From a virus: DNA of 64,000 nt. The notes under the pieces are model-generated. The model had not been told where the DNA came from. It did not search any database and was given only the letters and a program-made list of their open reading frames with translations. This document shows, in pieces, positions 3,106 to 39,015 of the stretch. Each line of letters starts with the position of its first letter. Position 1 is the first letter of the stretch. Made by a program: the position numbers and the translations under genes. The stretch spans positions 32,914 to 96,913 of IMG/VR virus record IMGVR_UViG_3300033149_002604. One strand, 5' to 3'.

Positions 3106-6100
3106 TTAAACTGTTATCCCCCCTGAATCTAGGTCACCATCATAAAGCTGGTCAACGCTTCCGGTGACACTACTACTAGCAATCAATCTGAATACATTTC
3201 CTGCTACTAAGTTAGCCGAAGCTTCAGCAGATGCGGTGTTTGATTCGTTACCAAAGTAATCAACATCTTTAACAAAAATCTTCACGTTAGCTGTGTTTGA
3301 ATATGTATCTATATCTGTAGCAGTCAAAGCATAAACTACGCTGTTTTCAGCATTATTATACCAACCATAGTAACTTCCAGTTCCAACCTTTATTCTGTAT
3401 GAATAGTAATTGTGGTCATTTTCTTGGCTGGCATCCCAACCGAATCGTACACCACCAACTACTGGAACAGCATTAACATTTGTTGGGGTAGATGGTGCAA
3501 TGTTTTCTACTTTAAATGGTTGGGAACCGTCAGACAGTATTCCTTGTCCTGTTCTTGAATAGACAATGAATACTAGTGTTGAATATGGATTTCCGTTGCT
3601 GTCTGAATAATTATTATCAAATGTGTAGGTATATTTTTCATCCTTTACAAAAGATGTCCTTAGCAGATTTGTTGATATGGGTGAATCGTGGTATACTTCT
3701 ACAACATATCCACCCAAAGGACCGGATGTAAAAGGTGCTGTACTGACGGGGTTCCATTCTATTGTTATGTCTTTGTCAGAAAATGTCGTTGAATTGGGAT
3801 TCTGTCCTTTGATATATATTCCAGACGGTGGATCTGGTTTATAGTTTGTTGCTTCTAATGTGACACTAGCAAAAATAGGATCACTAGACTTGTATTCAGT
3901 ATTGGTATATGCTTTAAAATAGTAGGTAGTATCTATTTGTAGTAGGTTATTGATATATTTAGCTTTATTCTTGTCTGCACTTACAGTTAATAGTGTGGAA
4001 TACCCATCAACTGAATCCGTTGACCATTCTATTGTGGTATATTTTATATTTGAATCAGTATCAGGTTTGACATAGAATTCAAACCCTATCCCTTCTTCTA
4101 TGTTTACCTGTCGAACTGAAAATTCCACTGGGGGATTTGGTTTCTTGTATGCATTATGTTCTTCTAATGCCGAATAATTGTCCCTTACTACAACTATAGA
4201 ATCTTCACTATAAATTTGTGATAAATGTTCAACTGCACTAACCGAAAGTTCATTGTTGCTATCCCGATTTACTGTAAGTAGCCTAAATGGTTTAATATTT
4301 CCTTGCTTCCCTATTGCATAAATTGAATCAGATACAGGGGAAGCAGTTGCTGAAAGAACAGATATTTCTTGTAAAGAATTCCCATCACTTAAGCCACTTA
4401 CATCTACCGTTGCTGTTACAAATGAATTTTCTTCGGTGGAGTATCTTATTAAGTACGTAGCACTTACATCGTCAAAAGTGTATGCCTTATCAAGTGTTAT
4501 GTCATTACCTGAATACGATAGAATCCTTCCACCTTCACCCCAGCTTGGTAAGGAATGTTGTAGGTAAACTATATCCCCAGCAGTTGCGTGTAATTTGTCT
4601 AGTCCGCATTTAAAATTTACTATGTGTGTGGTGTTTGTGGCCTTGTTTAGTTTGAATTTTAATTCCCTTTCTACACGTTTTCTATCTGTCAGCCATTTGA
4701 ACCCAAGCGTTCTTTCAACCGCTTTTGGGATTGTAGAATCGGTTGTTCTTGCTACCAAAGAACGCATCTGGTAGTTAAGGTCTTTATCTAAAAACTGACC
4801 GTAGATTTTGTAAGGAATTTCAGAAAGCGGAACAAATGACTGTGAAAATTCCTTTATATTCCCTGCCGAAATAAGATGAACTGGTGTGTCATCCCTGTCA
4901 ATAACAAAACTATACTTTCCATTTAACCAAACAGGCCAACATCTAAATGAATCACACATTTCAAACAATGCTGTTATAGCAGATTGTTTACTATCAATCA
5001 CACCATTCATAGTGTGTAGGTGTTCATATGATGATGTTGAATTTTTAAGTTCTACATCTGAAATCGTGAATGATACATTGTTTCCTTCTGAATCAGAATT
5101 GCTTATGTCTAATGAAAGCGCACGTATTCCACCAACAGTAGGGGTAAATGTTATTTGATGTGTTCCAGATGAAATACCTGTTTTTGATCCAAGCAAAACG
5201 TGTGAACCATCAAAGGTATCACCATATATATAGATATCAGAAGTTTCGCTTAGTGAACTAAATGTGATTGAAAATGTATGTTCAACATTTGTTGATAGGC
5301 TTGCATTAAATCTAAAGTTGACACTGTATTCCCTTGATTGTCCATCAGAACTTATTGTTCTAGCAGATGAATCACTGGAACCATTTCCAACAGTAAATGC
5401 CCAATAATTAGCCCATTCTGAATTATCCCCACCATCATACCAGCCAAGGTAATCTATTTGATCTGCTGCCCACTTCTTATGACAGAATTTGATAGCATCT
5501 ATTACACCATTTGTATACAAATCTGATTCAGACAGATACTTTCCTATTCCATATCTGGAATTTAGAAGTAGGTCCCTAACACAGAGCATCGCATTTTCAG
5601 AATATTCTTTTGTATAGGTGGATTCATCCCAAGTTCTTACTGATCCACCTGCTGTTTCAAATTGGTCTAAGGTTTCATTATAGAATAATTCATCGAATTT
5701 TTCTGTTCCACTATGATCTGGAACATCTACCTTCAGTCCACGTATCAAGGTTTTTATACTTGGTATTCCACCAGACAGTTGGCCTGTTGCTTTTATTCTT
5801 AGGCCAAGCAATGCTGTGTTAGGGTATATAAAATTACCGTATACTGATTCAATAACTGAATCCAATGTTATTCTATCAGCCTTCTTCATATCGGAAGATG
5901 CGGCTGTAGTTCTTCGCAACCTGATGGTATATACTCCATTTCCACTTCCACCAGATACAGTTGTGAAATCAATCGTGTGTGCTTGTAGAACAGGGGTATT
6001 TGATTGACCACTGATTGTAGCAGTTGAAAGACTTTGTGACTGGCTGGTTATATTTGCTTCCATACCAACAGTCACGCTTCCAGAAAAACTAACCATATAC

Positions 6101-14380: not shown

Positions 14381-15308
14381 TTATGCTACGGAAACTAATC
14401 CGTACTTTGCGTTTACACTATCTGCTGGTGTACACACGTTATTAGGATACCAGTCGTGTGAAAGTATCTCTAACACCATTGGACCACTCCACCAGTCTTC
14501 TGAACTCATGCTCATCCCACCATCTGGCCTGATGGTACATTTGGGAATCATATACACGAAGTCATTTCCAACATCGGTCCTGAAATAAAGCTGTGCAGAA
14601 CCGTATGTCAGTGCAGAAGTCATTGGCGTAAATAGTGGTGAACCAGTAATAGCAGATGCTGATTTGTCAGTACCCAGTAAGAACTTCCTGAAATTAGCTG
14701 CATTTATTTCGTCAAATGTGAAGCTAACTGTGATATTCTTCTGAGACACCACCACGTGGTCTTTGATCCTAGCACCAGTTACATCTGTAATGTAATGCTC
14801 TAAATAGGTTACATCAGGATTGATAGATATATCAGTTATATTTCCTATCAAACGGGCAGTAGTTCTAAAGTCCGAACCGACCCCGTTACTTGTGCCAGAA
14901 TCTAATGAAGCATGTGCTACTGACGCTTCAAAGTAAAGCAGTTTCTGTTATCGTGATAGCATTTAACTATCACTTCTTACGGTTTCCCGCAAGCTCAGAC
15001 CATATCATCCTCTGTATGTGTGAGAGAGGTCGGGCACTCGTGGGTTGATTATTGACTGGTCTGTCTCACAACCTGGTCGTTGAATCTTCCCCATACTTCT
15101 ATGACCTTTCAGGGGCTTGACTGCTGATTACCCAATCCAAGAACTTTTTGAACCATCACGCTTGCCGTTTCCAGCTACGTTGTGGTGTTCTTGGCTCTAA
15201 GGGTGTCCCAGCAATTCACCCGATTTAAAGTGGACCTTACGTAAGTTATTGAAATTATTAAAGATCCACAGCACCTGTCGTGTAATTTGTATAGCTAATA
15301 GTACTCAT
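14381..15308 (-). CDS. Tail tube protein, spliced: exon 1 15308-15264, exon 2 14938-14381 (200 aa)
   Basis: Joined product MSTISYTNYTTGAVD|LYFEASVAH...LIGNITDISINPDVTYLEHY aligns end to end with paralogue 16282-16851; strong RBS; lies upstream of the G/GT chaperone. Confidence 0.88.
14939..15263 (-). ncRNA. Group I intron, ORF-less (325 nt), in tail tube gene
   Basis: Exon ends in U (GTGGAT) and pairs with GGTCCAC (P1); P GAATTGCTGGGA, Q AATCAGCAG, R TTCAACGACCA, S GATGATATGGTCT; terminal G (AAACTG); removal restores the frame. Confidence 0.92.
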
Positions 15309-16861: not shown

Positions 16862-18049
16862 CTACAAAATAAACTTCAATGTTTCATTATCTTTACCATA
16901 CTCAAATTTGTACAAATCCAAAATCTTTTCTGGTACTTTCTTCTTTGGAAGCCCTAAAAGGTGTGCATACATCCCCTCAAGACTCCAAATGAAGTTTTCC
17001 ATTACCAATTCTTCCCGTTTTTGTTTAATATTTTCCATAACTTCCAGATACCTGCTTTCTAACTGGCTGGTATCCTTTATATCTTCTATGTCATCAAATG
17101 TAAATCCTATCCCGTGTCTTCTAACATAGTCTTCGGATTGTCTACACCAAGCTGTCAGTGATGGTAAACCAGCATGTAGGTATTCTTGAAGTTTGTTAGT
17201 CATTGTCAGATTTACTTGTCTTTCAGTTGCTTCTTTATTATTGAAGATATGAATTCCATACTTAAATTTGGTTAGTGCTTGCATCATTTCATCATAGTCT
17301 GTGGGTGGGTACAAGACTGCACCAATAAACTGCAATGTAGTATATGCTGTCATATTTCCACAGAATATGTGAACTTCATTTCCCAATTCTACCAACCTTC
17401 TAAATATCCAAGCAAGGTTTCTGTAAGGAAATGTCTGGTTTGCAGCAACATCATCTACTGGGTTAATCCCACCTTCATATACTAGACCTTTCCGTTTTGG
17501 AATATCTTCTTCATTGTATTCTATGATACCTTTATTGCAATAAGGGTATAAAACCATTGTTGGTTTGTTTAATGCGTGAAGTCTTTCTGTCCTTTGACGA
17601 ATGGGTTCTGAAACATAAATTAGTGCATCCGCAGCTAAGAACATTTCCCGTTCGTCAATGGGGATTATGCGTTCGAGTCTGCGAATGGAGTCAAGATCAT
17701 GGAGGTCGCAGACCAGTTTTACCCTGTCTTGTACTCCCATTTCATTAATCACCTGACGAATCCACACAACAGGCCTATCGGGCTCATTTGAGTAATCGAG
17801 AATCCTACAACCTATATCAATCATCATTTTTATTAGATTTTTAAATTGTCTCTCATCCTTATACACATGATATGTGTCATAAGATTCTATTCCATAAGGA
17901 ACTTTATTTCCTATTCCATGAACCTCATATCCTAATTTCTTTAAAGCCCTTCCTCGCTTCACTACCCTCACGCAGTGGTGCATTCCGATCAGGGCTATCT
18001 TAAGAGGATTACCATTCTCATCCAAGATTGGTTTTTCATAATCTGTCAT
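16862..18049 (-). CDS. GT-B glycosyltransferase (GT4-like)
   Basis: DLHDL, ADALIYVSE, LVYEGGI, TNKLQEYLHAGLP motifs. Confidence 0.8.
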   Translation of the reverse strand: MTDYEKPILDENGNPLKIALIGMHHCVRVVKRGRALKKLGYEVHGIGNKVPYGIESYDTYHVYKDERQFKNLIKMMIDIGCRILDYSNEPDRPVVWIRQVINEMGVQDRVKLVCDLHDLDSIRRLERIIPIDEREMFLAADALIYVSEPIRQRTERLHALNKPTMVLYPYCNKGIIEYNEEDIPKRKGLVYEGGINPVDDVAANQTFPYRNLAWIFRRLVELGNEVHIFCGNMTAYTTLQFIGAVLYPPTDYDEMMQALTKFKYGIHIFNNKEATERQVNLTMTNKLQEYLHAGLPSLTAWCRQSEDYVRRHGIGFTFDDIEDIKDTSQLESRYLEVMENIKQKREELVMENFIWSLEGMYAHLLGLPKKKVPEKILDLYKFEYGKDNETLKFIL

Positions 18050-18058
18050 AATTAACTC

Positions 18059-18844
18059 CTAATAATCGAATTTATATCCATAAATATGTTCTATTTCTTC
18101 AGGACATGGACCAACAAAATCTAAAAAATCTCCCGTCTTGTTGGTAGCAAACCTTATTGTATTACAAGATGGTTGTCTTGTACATGTCAGTCCCATTTTA
18201 CAGAATTTTTCTACTACAAATTCTACATCTTCAATCGGAAATCCTTCACTACAAATTCTAACATACTTCTTGTTGTGACTACATTTGCTTAAGCTGCCGT
18301 CTCCTATATACCAGTGAAGAACTATTGTTGGTGTCAGTTCTAAGTCTCTTGGAATTATTTTCTTTCCATTTTTATACATATATCTCCTAATATCTAACAA
18401 TTCTACATAATGCTTCGTCCAGTATTGATAATAAACTGCACCACTTTTTTTGTGTACAAACCTATTAATTTTTCCCATAGTTTCTATGTTGTTCTTTTCA
18501 AAGACACTCTTGATGTATAAAACAATATCTAAATATTTAGATGAGTGAGAGTATGATGCTGTACGTTGTATATTTTTCTTATCTGATACACTAAAGATTC
18601 CACCATCTCCCAAAACATTTCCCTGTATGAACTCCATCATTTCATCGGAAATTGTTATCGGAGGATTTTTTCTACAGAGAAAAAGAGTTTCAGACAAACT
18701 TCGTATTGGAATATCATTTTTTATTAAATGTTTACGAATCGTAGATGATGCCACACCTACCAATTTTGCCATTTCTGTTTGGTTCAATTTCTCAACAACA
18801 TACTTCTGATATAACCAATCTTTATCTTTCCACAATTTGTTCAT
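18059..18844 (-). CDS. Free-standing LAGLIDADG_2-type homing endonuclease with N-terminal HTH (likely start 18844)
   Basis: KDWLYQKYVVEKL HTH; IQGNVLGDGGI and LHWYIGDGS motifs; GGGGGA RBS before ATG 18844. Confidence 0.88.
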   Translation of the reverse strand: MNKLWKDKDWLYQKYVVEKLNQTEMAKLVGVASSTIRKHLIKNDIPIRSLSETLFLCRKNPPITISDEMMEFIQGNVLGDGGIFSVSDKKNIQRTASYSHSSKYLDIVLYIKSVFEKNNIETMGKINRFVHKKSGAVYYQYWTKHYVELLDIRRYMYKNGKKIIPRDLELTPTIVLHWYIGDGSLSKCSHNKKYVRICSEGFPIEDVEFVVEKFCKMGLTCTRQPSCNTIRFATNKTGDFLDFVGPCPEEIEHIYGYKFDY

Positions 18845-18867
18845 TTTATCCCCCCATTCAGGATCAT

Positions 18868-18925
18868 GCTGGTTGGGGAGTGGAATGGGCACTCCCCACT
18901 TAAGGTTGATCAGACCTTTTCCAGC
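18868..18925 (-). ncRNA. Candidate three-way-junction RNA upstream of the LAGLIDADG gene
   Basis: GCTGG/CCAGC closes hairpins AAGGT-CTGATCA-ACCTT and GGGGAGTG-CCCATTC-CACTCCCC. Confidence 0.55.
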
Positions 18926-19390
18926 CTAAAGTTTAACGTATCGTATCTTAAAATTACATGTAACTAACAGAAATTCATCCTCTTCCCATCCAACGGGAAT
19001 TGGAGCAGACTGAATTGCGAACACCTTTCCAGGTGTACTTGCACACACATCTTCATTTGTGTGTAAAAGATCAATCAATGCTTGCCCTGCTTTTAGGGAA
19101 GAATGAATTCCTTTTCCTTTAATTCTTATCTGGAAATTAGCTTCCCTTCTGTAGTTATCTACATTTGGTGGTAGTCCACCATAAGGGATTATAGTAACAG
19201 TTGTAGCAGTGGTCTGTGGTTCATATACAACAAACAGGTTGTTTCCAAGACTTAATGTAGTCCCAAGCACTACATTGACTTCTTGTGTAGCATTTAAGTT
19301 ATTAAGATAATTGGCAACTTCCCTAACTATTATCTCTGCCATAAGACCACCTACAGTATGAATTGCCCACCAAGTGTGATTTTGTTCCAC
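18926..19390 (-). CDS. Tail terminator / neck protein (likely start MAEIIVREV)
   Basis: LGNNLFV, FQIRIKG, PIPVGWEE...TCNF; synteny. Confidence 0.75.
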   Translation of the reverse strand: MEQNHTWWAIHTVGGLMAEIIVREVANYLNNLNATQEVNVVLGTTLSLGNNLFVVYEPQTTATTVTIIPYGGLPPNVDNYRREANFQIRIKGKGIHSSLKAGQALIDLLHTNEDVCASTPGKVFAIQSAPIPVGWEEDEFLLVTCNFKIRYVKL

Positions 19391-20040
19391 CCAATTGCAT
19401 CAAGCTGTCTATGAACCAGTTCAACTACATCGGTTGTATATTTGGTATATTTCCTCTTTCTTATCCTTGAAATCCCTTTTATGTCGGTTTCTATATCCCA
19501 CGGATTCACTATATTCTTAATCAAATTTGTATATTCACCAACACGTTCATTCCAAGCAAATTCCAAATACTTGGGTCCGGTATAGGGTTTTGTGGCTACC
19601 GGAATCCCAAGTAAATGGACTGGTTTAGGTCGTGGTACATAAGGAAGTAGGACTTCATGTGCCCATACAGCTATGTCTTTTCCTTCTTCGTTGGTTCGTC
19701 TGAAGGAAACATTCCCAAATACCCTTGCTTTTCTTCCCATTCCTTTTACTGTTTTTGAATTTATCCTTCCCAAATCTGCTTCAACAGTATCATTAGGGAA
19801 AGCACTAGATGCTTTCCCAACCACAAATCTTTGATAAAAGCTAGTAGTTACTGAAGCAGTTCCACTTGCACGAAGCTGACCTGTGTCGTAGGGTGTTCTA
19901 GGGAGGGTATAAGCCAACAGGTCTACCATGATTACACCTACTGTTCTTATGACACGCAGCTTTATATAGTCTTCAACAACACGCAAGTTCTTCTGTAATA
20001 TTTCAAGTTCACGTAGATTTAATCCCAGCTTCTTTGCCAA
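19351..20040 (-). CDS. Neck/tail completion protein (HK97 gp10-like)
   Basis: TPYDTGQLRAS and GPKYLEFA motifs. Confidence 0.75.
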   Translation of the reverse strand: MAKKLGLNLRELEILQKNLRVVEDYIKLRVIRTVGVIMVDLLAYTLPRTPYDTGQLRASGTASVTTSFYQRFVVGKASSAFPNDTVEADLGRINSKTVKGMGRKARVFGNVSFRRTNEEGKDIAVWAHEVLLPYVPRPKPVHLLGIPVATKPYTGPKYLEFAWNERVGEYTNLIKNIVNPWDIETDIKGISRIRKRKYTKYTTDVVELVHRQLDAIGWNKITLGGQFIL

Positions 20041-31544: not shown

Positions 31545-33188
31545 CTACTGCGTTGATATGCCTCCTGAGATGGAGACGCCGTGGAAATTACCCCATCTAT
31601 ATTCGTAAGCACCGATGTCCCAGGCTGAGCCTTGAGGTCTAGAGATATTATCAAGATCATAATTGTAAGTAGTACCTAAATCTATCCCAGAATCTACACA
31701 ATCGGAACTGCTTCTTAAATAGTAATTGTTATTTGCTGGATCTATAAAACTGGCTTGTTTGTTATCTCCCGCAGAATCATGACTATTTACACCTTCATTC
31801 TGCTCAGCTATAAAATCGTCGAATAACTTCATTCCACCAGAATAATAATAATTTATATTGGTACAACCAATATCTGCTATGCACCATCTGACTACACGTT
31901 GGTCGCCATTCCCTTGGTCGAAAAGGTTGTAATCTCCTGTATAAATCAAATCAGAAGAATCATAAACACATAAATCGCCGTCGTTTGTGTCTCCATCAAT
32001 ATTATTCTGATAAAGGACGCAATTTTTCATTGTAACAAGAGTATCTCTATTGCTATATGAGGGTGCACTAAGATATACACCAAATGAGTTGTTAGCAAAT
32101 GTACAATTATATATATAGACTGTGGGGCCATTATATACATGGCACCCAATGTTATTCTCATAAGCCAAACAGGAAACAAAATAAAACCTTGAATTGCCAG
32201 TAGAATCCGCTGCATTAGCAGCAAAACCATCATCATTGTTATATGAGCGGCATCGTTTAAAAATGATGTTATCGTCTAATACACTATTCGACACAGTCCC
32301 ATTGTCAAAACCATCTCCTTCATTATCGTAAGCTAAACAATCGCTTATAGTAATATCATGAGAATCAGTTATCCAGAAGCCATGTTTTAGGTTCCCACCA
32401 CCGCCACCACCTCTTGGTGTATCTCCATTGTTATGTGAAATACAATTAGATATAATCCCATTACTACAACCATATGTAGAACCCCCAATGTAGAATCCAG
32501 TCGTCAAATCATTATCTCCACCATCGGCTTCACACCATTCAATTGTAAAACTGTCTTGTCGTTGTATAACATAGCTCTGTTTTCCGCTATTTATACACTT
32601 AACATGGCTCATCTCTAGACCACTACATTTTGAGGCTTCAGATGTTCCTAGTGCTCTTATTGAATAATAATCGGCTCCAGAAACAATAAAACCGTCGTAT
32701 GAACTACTTATACCGGCGATTCCACTTATTGTTAGATAAGGAATAGGTGTGATGGTTCCATCTGGTAAAATTCCAATATTTATTAACGCTTGGTATTCAT
32801 CAGAATATGATGCGTTACTATCTGTAAAAATTACAGATCCAGTTCCCCAATTTATGTCACGTTTTATGGAAATTCTGTTACTTGGTGTAGCAGAATTAGA
32901 ATAGTAATCTGTGTTTATATAAATAACACCAATATGTGTAGTGCCAGACTTTATAAAAATCAAATCTCCAGGTTGAATAGTAACTGAAGGGCAGTTGTAA
33001 CCGGTATTATCCAATTTTCGTGTGCCAGGAATATGTTGCCAAGGCGTAGAAGTTGACAATCCATCATTAGAGTCAGAACCACTACTAGGGTCAACATAGT
33101 ATGTACTGGCCCAAGAACAAAATAAGGAAACAAATAGAAAGATCAATAAAAATATACTAACAATAAAAATTCTTTTATTAATCAACAT
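31545..33188 (-). CDS. Signal-peptide-bearing right-handed beta-helix (pectin lyase-like) protein
   Basis: Hydrophobic N-terminus, YYVDPSSGSDSNDGLS..PW, repeated NC..Y.N rungs, C-terminal RPQGSAWDIGAYE. Confidence 0.85.
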   Translation of the reverse strand: MLINKRIFIVSIFLLIFLFVSLFCSWASTYYVDPSSGSDSNDGLSTSTPWQHIPGTRKLDNTGYNCPSVTIQPGDLIFIKSGTTHIGVIYINTDYYSNSATPSNRISIKRDINWGTGSVIFTDSNASYSDEYQALINIGILPDGTITPIPYLTISGIAGISSSYDGFIVSGADYYSIRALGTSEASKCSGLEMSHVKCINSGKQSYVIQRQDSFTIEWCEADGGDNDLTTGFYIGGSTYGCSNGIISNCISHNNGDTPRGGGGGGNLKHGFWITDSHDITISDCLAYDNEGDGFDNGTVSNSVLDDNIIFKRCRSYNNDDGFAANAADSTGNSRFYFVSCLAYENNIGCHVYNGPTVYIYNCTFANNSFGVYLSAPSYSNRDTLVTMKNCVLYQNNIDGDTNDGDLCVYDSSDLIYTGDYNLFDQGNGDQRVVRWCIADIGCTNINYYYSGGMKLFDDFIAEQNEGVNSHDSAGDNKQASFIDPANNNYYLRSSSDCVDSGIDLGTTYNYDLDNISRPQGSAWDIGAYEYRWGNFHGVSISGGISTQ

Positions 33189-36699: not shown

Positions 36700-38476
36700 T
36701 TAGCTAGAAGCAATTGCATTAGCATACCAAAATCGCCAATTGGTTACTACTCCACCATAGCGACAATTGATAGTAATGAAATAATCAAGCGACACCTCAT
36801 CGATGAACGTATCAATGATAGGATCTTGGCGGTTGCTTGCAATTAGTCCTTCCTTGGCTTTTCCTAAGAACCACCCATCAGTGTCACTCAGATAACTCCA
36901 CTCTATCGGATTCACCAACCCACGGAGCACATTGACATCATTGTCTGCACTTCCAGGGATCAGTGTAGAATTCAGAAGCACCTGAGCAGTAAACTTCAGT
37001 GCGGGTGGAATCAAAAGGGTGTCTGGAAGTATTTCTACAACATTTCCCCTTTCATCCCTATTGTTGGTAGAAGTCATAGTAAGATATACTGACCTCAAAT
37101 TAGATTCCGTCAAAGAATTGGAAGCACCATAATTAGAATAGGTGTTCCCAACCTTATCGGGGTGTGCAGTAGAGAAGAAAGGTTTATTGTCATAGATCAA
37201 GTTCCCTGTAGGATCATCAATAACATTAGCAATGGTGTTATTAAAAACATCATTGCCAGCAGTCATTGCCCCGTAGTTGAAGAACTTGGCATAGAACTTT
37301 TCCTTGGTTCTAAGATATGCCTTACCCCAAGAACCAACAGCCTGTTGGATAAGGTTAGACTTCTGGCTGTCTTCGATAGATTCTTTGGAAAATCTAGCAA
37401 TCCTTCCAAAAGTCCTGTTCTTGCAGATTACAGTGTAACCTTCCATTGGGGCATCTGGCTGCAAGTCTTCACTTTCAGGTTTTTCCACCAAGTCACCCAT
37501 TCCGATAGCTGTGGTGAATTTCTCATCACATTTGTTACTGTCTATTGACAGGACTGGTCATTTCTGCCAGTCTCCACACATTGCTGTGTGGGTCGGACTA
37601 TATCACTACTAGATTTATCATCTAGCAGGTTGGCGTACGGACCTAGTTTGTATCTCATACAAGGAACTATATATGGTTTGATAATTTCTACAAATCTGTC
37701 ATTGTGTTTATTTCGAAGTCTTAATCTATATTTATAATTACCAAGTTTCGTTTTTCCTGCCTTATTGATATTCCAATCGAGATCAAACTTCAATTTAAGG
37801 CTTTTTTTGAGAAGAAGTTGATTAGCATAATCATAAGCTTCGGTACTTAGATAAAATGTAACATCTTTGCCATTAGGATTAAAACCATGTGTGCCGTTAT
37901 CCATGAATAAAATTGCTAATGAAAGTGGATTTAGTTTCTTTACGATATATTCATCTAAGACCTTTCTACCATTATAATACATTCTCTTTCTAAGTTTGGT
38001 AAGCATTGGATGTTGTCTTGTTCCTAGATGGTATCCATAAAATATCTTACCATTTAATTCTCTCTTCGTTTTGTGTATTGAAGATGATGTTATTTTATCA
38101 AGGAACTTTTTCTTCCAGAGCATATATTCGTATTGAGCTTCACAGTGGCTCATCTGAAAAAAAGCTTCACTTCTACCTTTTCTACACGACAAACACCCAT
38201 CTCCCATTACCATTGCTATTATCACACTTCTAAGTTCTTCTCTATTTAGGTCCATAGTCTCTACACCCTCCTTAAAGGATTGGCTCGGTATTGTCCTCAG
38301 GGGATTTCCACCGAATTTAGCCAACTACGCGCATAAGTTTACGCTGCATCGGAATCAACTACATCAAATATATTTTCATACACGGGAGCTTTTTGCTCAT
38401 AGGCTTCCCAGAAGAAACCATAGGCCGTCTTCTTCATATTTTCAGTAAAATCATCACGTCTTACTCCGCCTGCCAT
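36700..38476 (-). CDS. Major capsid protein (Mu gpT-like), spliced: exon 1 38476-38341, exon 2 37526-36700 (320 aa)
   Basis: Joined product MAGGVRRDDF...VDSDAA-Y-EKFTTAIGMGDL...; YDNKPFFSTAHP, PDTLLIPPAL, WFL, RYGGVVTNWR motifs; follows scaffold. Confidence 0.92.
37527..38340 (-). ncRNA. Group I intron (814 nt) in the major capsid gene, with an ORF starting in the P8 region
   Basis: 5' exon ends GCGT and pairs with GCGC (U.G); P AATTCGGTGGAAA, Q AATACCGAGC, R GTAGAGACTA, S GATATAGTCC; P9 hairpins; terminal G. Confidence 0.93.
37542..38255 (-). CDS. Intron-encoded LAGLIDADG homing endonuclease (likely start 38255)
   Basis: IAMVMGDGCL and LAILFMDNG motifs; AAGGAGG RBS inside the intron core. 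Confidence 0.9.
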   Translation of the reverse strand: MDLNREELRSVIIAMVMGDGCLSCRKGRSEAFFQMSHCEAQYEYMLWKKKFLDKITSSSIHKTKRELNGKIFYGYHLGTRQHPMLTKLRKRMYYNGRKVLDEYIVKKLNPLSLAILFMDNGTHGFNPNGKDVTFYLSTEAYDYANQLLLKKSLKLKFDLDWNINKAGKTKLGNYKYRLRLRNKHNDRFVEIIKPYIVPCMRYKLGPYANLLDDKSSSDIVRPTQQCVETGRNDQSCQ

Positions 38477-38509: not shown

Positions 38510-38989
38510 TTATGACATGAAAGCAGAAGGTTTAATAGAAACCAACACTGCATCATTGTCAGCGTCAAAATCATGAATCAAAAGCATCTGGCTTGCCTCA
38601 GTATCCACCTTGTAAGCCTTCTGCGTCAAAGCATAAGTAGCATTGGCCGTCTTGATACTAGCACCAGCCCCCACTACAGTTGCATTTGCGCTAGCAGAAG
38701 CAGTGTCTAAAGGCATCCAGAACTTGTTTTCTACACCCACATACACAAAGCCTTTCTCTTCAGCAGAAGTCTTATGACCATTCTTGCCTGAATCATCTTT
38801 GGGTGCATGTGCCCAACCAAATATACCACCAGCAGTCCCTGTGGGGGTTGCATTGGTATATAAGGTAGCACGTCCATTAACCATCTTTACAAACCTTCCA
38901 GTTTGTCTATTCAAATACTGATTAGCTGCAAAAGGAACCTCTTCTCCCTTACCAGGTCCCATTGACCATCCCATACGAAATTTAGCCAT
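38510..38989 (-). CDS. Putative capsid decoration/cement protein (likely start MAKFRMG)
   Basis: Between scaffold and capsid; same 13-nt RBS as the capsid gene. Confidence 0.65.
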   Translation of the reverse strand: MAKFRMGWSMGPGKGEEVPFAANQYLNRQTGRFVKMVNGRATLYTNATPTGTAGGIFGWAHAPKDDSGKNGHKTSAEEKGFVYVGVENKFWMPLDTASASANATVVGAGASIKTANATYALTQKAYKVDTEASQMLLIHDFDADNDAVLVSIKPSAFMS

Positions 38990-39015
38990 CTTATATTTCA
39001 CCGTCCTTCATAAAA

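Follow-up and report, generated by a model that had tools for sequence, protein, structure and literature searches.

Group I introns within phage capsid genes have been described before. In LittleE, a group I intron carrying a LAGLIDADG-type gene interrupts the major capsid gene, and its splicing in late expression has been shown experimentally (PMC3706429); a passage of the same paper cites a capsid-gene intron in the lactococcal phage Tuc2009. The introns of phages more often encode enzymes of the GIY-YIG, HNH, PD-(D/E)xK and EDxHD types than LAGLIDADG ones (PMC3984707), which makes LAGLIDADG a less usual nuclease type for phages. Several features expected of such elements have also been published, including a stop codon after the 5' splice site, sequestration of the ribosome-binding site (RBS) of the intronic gene, and a splicing defect of the I-TevI intron caused by ribosomes entering the core (PMC3073962). 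Here we describe a related arrangement on the minus strand of a 64,000-nt stretch of viral DNA (hereafter, the window; positions 32,914 to 96,913 of the IMG/VR record IMGVR_UViG_3300033149_002604, a 96.9-kb, ~79% complete record of an uncultured phage), in which the sole major capsid gene is interrupted by a group I intron encoding a protein of the LAGLIDADG_2 family. Our analysis argues, with a probability of roughly 0.88, for a genuine mobile-type intron, IA-like, that splits the Tyr46 codon of the capsid gene after its first base (Table 1).

The exon junction can be read directly in the sequence. Exon 1 ends with ...GAT GCA GCG T at 38341 and exon 2 begins with AT GAG AAA TTC, so that the unspliced RNA reads GCG TAA at the 5' junction and ligation creates TAT (Tyr) in DAAYEKFTT, the expected ligated junction being GATGCAGCGT joined to ATGAGAAATTC. 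The exons joined in silico encode a capsid protein of 320 aa, in line with the lengths of the homologs retrieved with exon 2 in a database search (mostly 318-322 aa). In the alignment with intron-less homologs the spliced product is collinear, with zero indel at the junction and ...DAAYEKFT... read across it, and the junction Tyr is invariant. For example, the intron-less homolog P0002, 84% identical, has DAAYEKFTTAIG / DVVESDAAYEKFTTAIGMGDL across this site. Exon 2 matches PF25209 (Phage_capsid_4, 3.5e-13) and PF10124 (Mu-like gpT, 4.6e-09), and the PF25209 match begins at profile position 43; positions 1-42, which are absent from exon 2, are supplied by the 45-aa exon 1. Just upstream lie the portal (phrog_145) and scaffold (phrog_206) genes, in the order portal, scaffold, capsid. 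Family match, gene context and a full-length collinear product together identify the split gene as that of the phage major capsid protein. The exact ligated-junction 23-mer had no match in the viral contigs searched.

The insert has the termini and the core of a group I intron. It starts with AAACUUAUGCGC and ends with ...AAAUGUG; its P1 (GCGU/GCGC) places a U.G wobble at the 5' splice site, and its terminal omega-G is accompanied by a 5-bp P10 (AUGAG/CUUAU). The core comprises P3 to P8 with the P3/P7 pseudoknot, an R element GAGACUA, and J8/7-P7 within the S element GAUAUAGUC; P2 is absent. The covariation behind this fold is likewise directly visible in an alignment of six introns in which P1, P3, P4, P5, P6, P7, the helix closing the open reading frame (ORF) loop, P9 and P9.1 were placed: 99% of the 300 cells are in standard pairs, and 17 of the 50 pairs are altered on both sides. 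None of 500 shuffles reached the observed values, and sliding the partner strands by 1-3 columns left only 28-40% paired. Both P5 and P6 covary, the inner P6 (UCCU/AGGA) being invariant in 6/6 introns. The helices P8, P9, P9.1 and P9.2 were recovered by folding each copy separately, as hairpins of unrelated sequence; this includes the place of P8, which other copies fill with hairpins of their own.

The nuclease ORF lies between P7 and P3', inside a 7-bp helix whose 7/7 pairs are retained in all six introns with 2 compensatory changes (it reads GAAUCUA/UAGAUUC in relatives). This is the place of the extra P7.1/P7.2 pairings listed for subgroup IA of group I introns (PMC3984707), and with this one covarying ORF-loop helix the modelled structure may be described, tentatively, as IA-like. 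Readings of the insert as an intein, a group II intron or a frameshift were weighed and set aside in view of the group I core, of the insert being out of frame with the exons and of its initial stop codon.

A scan of the whole window with Rfam at gathering threshold missed the capsid intron and reported only a separate ORF-less one at 14976-15294 (see below). A search by E-value targeted at the locus found two half-matches to RF00028 on either side of the ORF, one covering P3-P6-P7 (38321-38215, 18.5 bits) and the other P7'/P9 with GAUAUAGUC (37749-37574, 17.6 bits). Both stay below the 50-bit gathering score because the ORF splits the core; that score is a database cut-off and does not define the group I class. 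The original prediction, made from the letters of this stretch, was that a LAGLIDADG-encoding group I intron interrupts the capsid gene. Exon collinearity, the Pfam match starting at 43, the covariation and the introns found at the same codon in other phages (see below) bear it out. The predicted passage from a TAA in unspliced RNA to the Tyr of DAAYEKFTT can be read in the sequence.

Table 1. Positions of the capsid exons, the intron, its structural elements and the nuclease gene in the window
Feature	Position	Strand	Details
Capsid exon 1	38476-38341	minus	45 codons and the T of Tyr46; N-terminus MAGGVRRDDF...DSDAA aligns with intron-less homologs
P1 exon strand GCGU	38344-38341	minus	Last four bases of exon 1; P1 pairing
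Group I intron	38340-37527	minus	814 nt, 35% G+C; AAAC start, omega-G at 37527
Internal guide sequence	38337-38329	minus	CUUAU (38337-38333) forms P10 with exon 2 AUGAG; GCGC (38332-38329) forms P1
P3 5' strand GUUGGC	38325-38320	minus	Pairs with 37634-37629; 2 compensatory pairs
P4-P5-P6 domain	38314-38265	minus	P4 UCGGU/ACCGA, P5 UCC/GGA, P6 GCC..UCCU/AGGA..GGU; Rfam half-match 18.5 bits
Nuclease Shine-Dalgarno AAGGAGG	38273-38267	minus	AGGA within it forms the 3' strand of inner P6; lies just 5' of the R element proper
P7 5' strand GACUA	38259-38255	minus	End of R element; final A shared with the nuclease AUG
LAGLIDADG_2 nuclease ORF	38255-37542	minus	237 aa and TAG; PF03161, phrog_11023
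P7.1-like helix 5' strand GGACCUA	38253-38247	minus	Closes the ORF loop; ORF codons 1-3
P7.1-like helix 3' strand UAGGUCC	37645-37639	minus	Codons of ...LGP near the conserved end of the nuclease
P3 3' strand GCCAAC	37634-37629	minus	Downstream of the ORF body
P8 hairpin	37628-37606	minus	9 bp, loop GAUAA; minimum free energy -10.4 kcal/mol
J8/7 and P7 3' strand (S element)	37605-37596	minus	Within UGAUAUAGUC
P9, P9.1 and P9.2 hairpins	37591-37538	minus	Nuclease stop TAG (37544-37542) in P9.2 loop and 3' strand
Capsid exon 2	37526-36700	minus	AT of Tyr46, 274 codons and stop; PF25209, PF10124; 229 homologs

Searches of viral and metagenome contigs revealed homologous introns in 14 further distinct loci. 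A P1 of 4-6 bp, with the U.G wobble at the splice site each time, and a P10 of 3-6 bp are present in 15/15 copies, and changes in the guide compensate for differences between the exons, giving P1 versions such as GCCU/GGGC, UUCGU/GCGAA and UGCAU/GUGCA and, in L025, a P10 of exon 2 ACG with guide CGU. All 15 copies split a TAY codon after its T, and a TAA or TAG is formed at the junction in each. The presence/absence polymorphism among related phages is directly seen: the Tyr46 site is empty in most related capsid genes, where the sequence closely resembles the ligated exons (GATGCAGCGT joined to ATGAAAAG in L008), and is occupied by an intron with its ORF in several phages whose capsids are 56-74% identical to that of the window. 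A third state is represented by a 278-nt derivative at the same site (L027 937-1214, minus strand, identical in L047), in which all ribozyme helices are intact but only the first ~7 and the last ~25 codons of the nuclease gene are left. This ORF-deleted copy gives a full-length match to RF00028 (42.4 bits, E 1e-9), and it resembles the step of the homing-endonuclease cycle at which the ORF is lost.

The same intron-plus-nuclease family occupies two other positions of the capsid gene, the Tyr19 codon (L042, pattern at 120; KKDS-YGWFWE, P1 UUCGU/GCGAA) and the Tyr22 codon (L033/L031; DMYA-YFWEKY, P1 UGCAU/GUGCA), with both P1 and P10 guides re-matched to the new exons. The nucleases of these copies form a clade nested within the Tyr46 nucleases in the tree (support 100/99 and 95/90), which points to re-targeting of the family within one gene, between Tyr codons 46, 19 and 22. 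At Tyr19, different phages carry introns of two unrelated families. L001/L002 (capsid 81% identical) have an empty Tyr46 site. Their capsid gene is interrupted by a pair of paralogous ORF-less group I introns of another family (Rfam 89 and 68 bits; 3262-3605 and 3640-3914 in L001), in codon 4 (ATGGCAGGCGT before the site, A after it) and in the Tyr19 codon (KKDA-YGYFWE); both share an identical ~35-nt 3' extension past the end of the Rfam model.

These comparisons bear on whether the insertion is removed at all. Were it retained, the capsid gene would be broken, or it would be expressed as a short form that starts at the internal Met (37500) and leaves exon 1 as a remnant; gene callers do place the start at internal Mets on related contigs (P0003, P0005), and splicing of the capsid intron is a prediction from the sequence. 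On the other hand, the 45 codons of exon 1 form an intact frame, with a GGACGGTGA-type ribosome site of its own; this exon is conserved in every full-length homolog, and the Pfam profile requires it. The ribozyme helices are kept by compensatory changes, and at three different insertion sites P1 and P10 vary in concert with the exons, for which selection for splicing is the only explanation. A retained insertion is accordingly highly improbable, and the start at Met 37500, which the original prediction had named as a condition for its own refutation, is contradicted by the 45 conserved N-terminal residues encoded intact upstream of the intron. We thus favor a spliced capsid gene, and we infer that the intron splices itself.

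A few observations on the neighbourhood of this locus can be added. P0001, an NCBI-sourced protein of 282 aa on a 1579-nt contig, matches exon 2 at 97% identity and has MVESNSSYEKFTT where the junction would lie; the near-identical phage that carries it probably has an empty Tyr46 site. In the comparison of the window with L045, a phage ~90% identical to it, identity amounts to 90% in the upstream gene, 100% in the intron core and 92% in the nuclease gene, and to only 76% over the first 86 nt of exon 1 (38391-38476); the latter may be a local recombination patch. We make no claim that the intron is more conserved than its flanks, which would be a sign of recent transfer, because these two phages are simply ~90% identical overall. 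Between the scaffold and capsid genes, a 163-aa ORF (38510-39001, minus strand) with a GGACGGTGAAA-type ribosome site, as for the capsid gene, is conserved in L001 and L045; it has zero Pfam or PHROG matches and may encode a head decoration or accessory protein. Elsewhere in the window (14976-15294, minus strand) there is a separate ORF-less group I intron matching RF00028 above the gathering score (66.6 bits, E 1e-14).

The ORF product belongs to the PF03161 family (105.8 bits, 3e-30, against a cut-off of 25 bits), with two motifs in a single chain, and aligns with I-SceI over residues 2-205 (E 2e-11). Its first motif, VMGDGC (GDG codons 38204-38196), aligns with LILGDA of I-SceI and has the Asp. 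The second, FMDNG (37901-37893), aligns with FMDDG (D144-D145), and the Asn codon AAC at 37898-37896 falls on the D145 position, so that an acidic residue does not close both motifs. D44 and D145 of I-SceI are the catalytic pair, and replacement of Asp by Asn at the D145-equivalent position abolishes cleavage in I-CreI. The other copies of the nuclease have [F/Y]MDDG, except for L045 and L041, which have Asn as in the window; of 139 representatives of the wider family, 135 carry Asp here, 3 carry Asn and 1 carries Ile. The product is thus a member of the family by sequence and a putative double-strand endonuclease at most. Isolated phages in the phage collection hold no close relative of this protein (the best, Pseudomonas phage proteins, are ~35% identical) and none of the capsid protein (identity ≤36%).

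The Asn variant does not mark a decaying gene. The three copies of this nuclease that carry it (window, L045 and L041) are monophyletic (support 99/98), and dN/dS is 0.03 between the window and L045 (at dS 0.51) and ~0.10 between the window and L041, values which indicate that the Asn form is kept by selection; decay of the nuclease through the D-to-N change in motif 2 is ruled out, the change being clade-wide and dN/dS being 0.03. What the protein is retained for is a more tentative matter. It may have ceased to break both strands and could be a strand-specific nickase, a protein that only binds DNA, or a maturase that assists folding of the capsid intron, and it would then have been retained for such a role and not for homing; FMDNG in place of FMDDG, the Asp kept by the remaining copies outside the Asn clade, and the strong purifying selection within it (by which the protein retains some function) would all fit, and a bacterial LAGLIDADG maturase, from Thermotoga, is on record in a citation within PMC3984707. 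Yet Asn has arisen independently in three further family members and may therefore be compatible with cleavage, the first motif retains its Asp, the rest of the DNA-binding scaffold aligns end to end with I-SceI, and three sequences are too few to judge the spread of the intron. On balance we hold this loss of double-strand cleavage to be a possibility, with odds clearly below even. A narrower version is unlikely, namely that the Asn protein acts as a nickase, or that it has become a maturase-like factor without which the capsid pre-mRNA is not spliced. It draws on the strongly conserved sequence of the protein, whose start codon and outermost conserved codons (the first and the last) form part of P7 and the P7.1 helix, and, if true, it would tie the supply of phage capsids to the intron's own protein.

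The window holds a second LAGLIDADG_2 gene (18059-18892, minus strand; 58 bits, 277 aa), with motifs VLGDGG and YIGDGS and an N-terminal helix-turn-helix-like segment, situated between virion genes. No group I signal was found around it within 17300-19700, and it probably encodes a free-standing homing endonuclease.

The translation signals of the intronic nuclease gene are built into the ribozyme. The 5' strand of P7 ends with the A of its AUG (38255), and the 7-bp ORF-loop helix starts with the G (38253); this layout, with the Shine-Dalgarno (SD) sequence in P6 and the AUG at the P7/P7.1 boundary, is identical in every copy examined. The claim that both the ribosome site and the ATG overlap the R element therefore needs adjusting: the A of the AUG does coincide with the end of P7 and R, but the SD lies in P6, just upstream of R. 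We propose the following sequence of events. The capsid pre-mRNA would have to self-splice to yield the 320-aa protein; the guide CUUAU-GCGC would align exon 2 (through P10) and exon 1 (through P1, with its U.G), and the omega-G would mark the 3' site. The TAA at the junction would release ribosomes translating exon 1 before they reach the ribozyme core, and the folded ribozyme would mask the SD and AUG of the nuclease. A ribosome initiating there would have to melt P6, P7 and P7.1 and, in the window copy, would then read through P3', P8, P7', P9 and P9.1. Since the guanosine site lies in P7, ribozyme activity and the presence of a ribosome on the nuclease message would exclude each other, so that on each RNA molecule nuclease translation and splicing would be alternatives, with splicing dominant. 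Such mutual exclusion is a known principle and is expected here from the modelled anatomy (SD in P6, AUG at P7/P7.1, ORF over the 3' core) and from the I-TevI precedent (PMC3073962). A promoter/terminator scan around the intron gave nothing above shuffled expectation, and for this reason a separate promoter for the nuclease is not proposed.

At its other end the ORF crosses P3', P8, S/P7', P9 and P9.1, as had been anticipated for S and P9, and its stop codon falls in P9.2, 15 nt short of the 3' splice site. This raises the idea of a selected device that couples termination of translation to folding of the ribozyme, given that a ribosome translating so far would cover the whole 3' core. The comparison of copies speaks otherwise. 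Past the start of P3' the ORF extends by 1 nt in L012 and L017, 14 in L014, 23 in L025 and 35 in L034, as compared to 95 in the window; the last ~30 residues of the window nuclease have no counterpart in any relative or in I-SceI (the alignment ends at ...YKLG); and the difference traces to the loss of a TAA just before P3', which L012 and L017 keep and the window lacks. A variable extension of the ORF into the core is what the "core creep" hypothesis predicts (PMC3073962). We judge a selected coupling device quite improbable and read the long overlap with S and P9 as specific to the window copy, consistent with core creep and probably an accident of where the next stop codon lies.

Several points weigh against the overall interpretation of a mobile, self-splicing capsid intron. 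The phage is known only from a metagenome, and its splicing is predicted from sequence. Both the window intron and its ORF-less homolog in L027 score below the RF00028 cut-off (42.4 bits for the latter, as compared to 50 bits). The window P1 has only 4 bp, as does the inner P6 stem that holds the SD, and it is a secondary-structure model that predicts the masking of the SD and AUG. Finally, the Asn at the D145 position makes classical double-strand homing by the window nuclease doubtful, and homing stays a putative activity.

Overall, the element is a selfish one of a known type, and its copy in the window is clear but fairly ordinary; the junction stop, the burial of the SD in P6, the position of the AUG where P7 meets a P7.1-like helix, and the overlap of ORF and core are all known general features of phage group I introns (PMC3073962), and the present understanding of how such introns work is unchanged. 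A modest added interest comes from the family occupying three sites, the core-creep series and the selected Asn variant. The family is a well-resolved addition to the growing set of introns in phage structural genes and offers a natural series (empty sites, intron with ORF, ORF-deleted intron, three Tyr codons, variable ORF ends and a selected Asn variant) that could serve for testing core creep, the cycle of homing-endonuclease gain and loss, and intron re-targeting; the copies at Tyr46, Tyr19 and Tyr22 are natural material on how a mobile intron acquires a new site. There is also a practical consequence, as automated annotation mis-calls the capsid gene in this group of phages, with starts at internal Mets and an intron below the curated threshold of Rfam.

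Among known systems, LittleE shares with the window phage a group I intron with a LAGLIDADG-type gene in the capsid gene, present in only some related phages. Its nuclease, however, is I-CreI-like and encoded on the opposite strand, whereas that of the window is I-SceI-like (PF03161), lies on the sense strand and overlaps the core; the capsid family and the host are also unrelated. I-SceI itself (PDB 1R7M and others) belongs to the same Pfam family, with both LAGLIDADG motifs in register, but originates from a yeast mitochondrial rRNA intron; the window protein differs from it by the Asn at the D145 position and by its C-terminal ~30 aa, an unrelated tail for which ribozyme sequence codes. The intron of the Synechococcus lividus large-subunit ribosomal DNA likewise has a LAGLIDADG ORF, with an 81-nt overlap of P6/P7/P3/P8/P9.0/P9 (PMC3073962, Table 1). 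Its host gene, on the other hand, is an rRNA gene with no exon translation or junction stop, and the ORF is described in P8 (PMC3073962). The T4 td/I-TevI intron (PMC3073962, PMC2988022) also interrupts a phage protein gene, with an in-frame stop close to its 5' splice site; RNA structure sequesters the nuclease RBS, the 3' end of the ORF overlaps core helices, and ribosomes in the core impair splicing. I-TevI differs in being a GIY-YIG enzyme encoded in the P6a loop with its RBS in a dedicated hairpin, whereas in the window the SD is within P6 itself, the AUG is between P7 and P7.1, and the ORF is between P7 and P3'.

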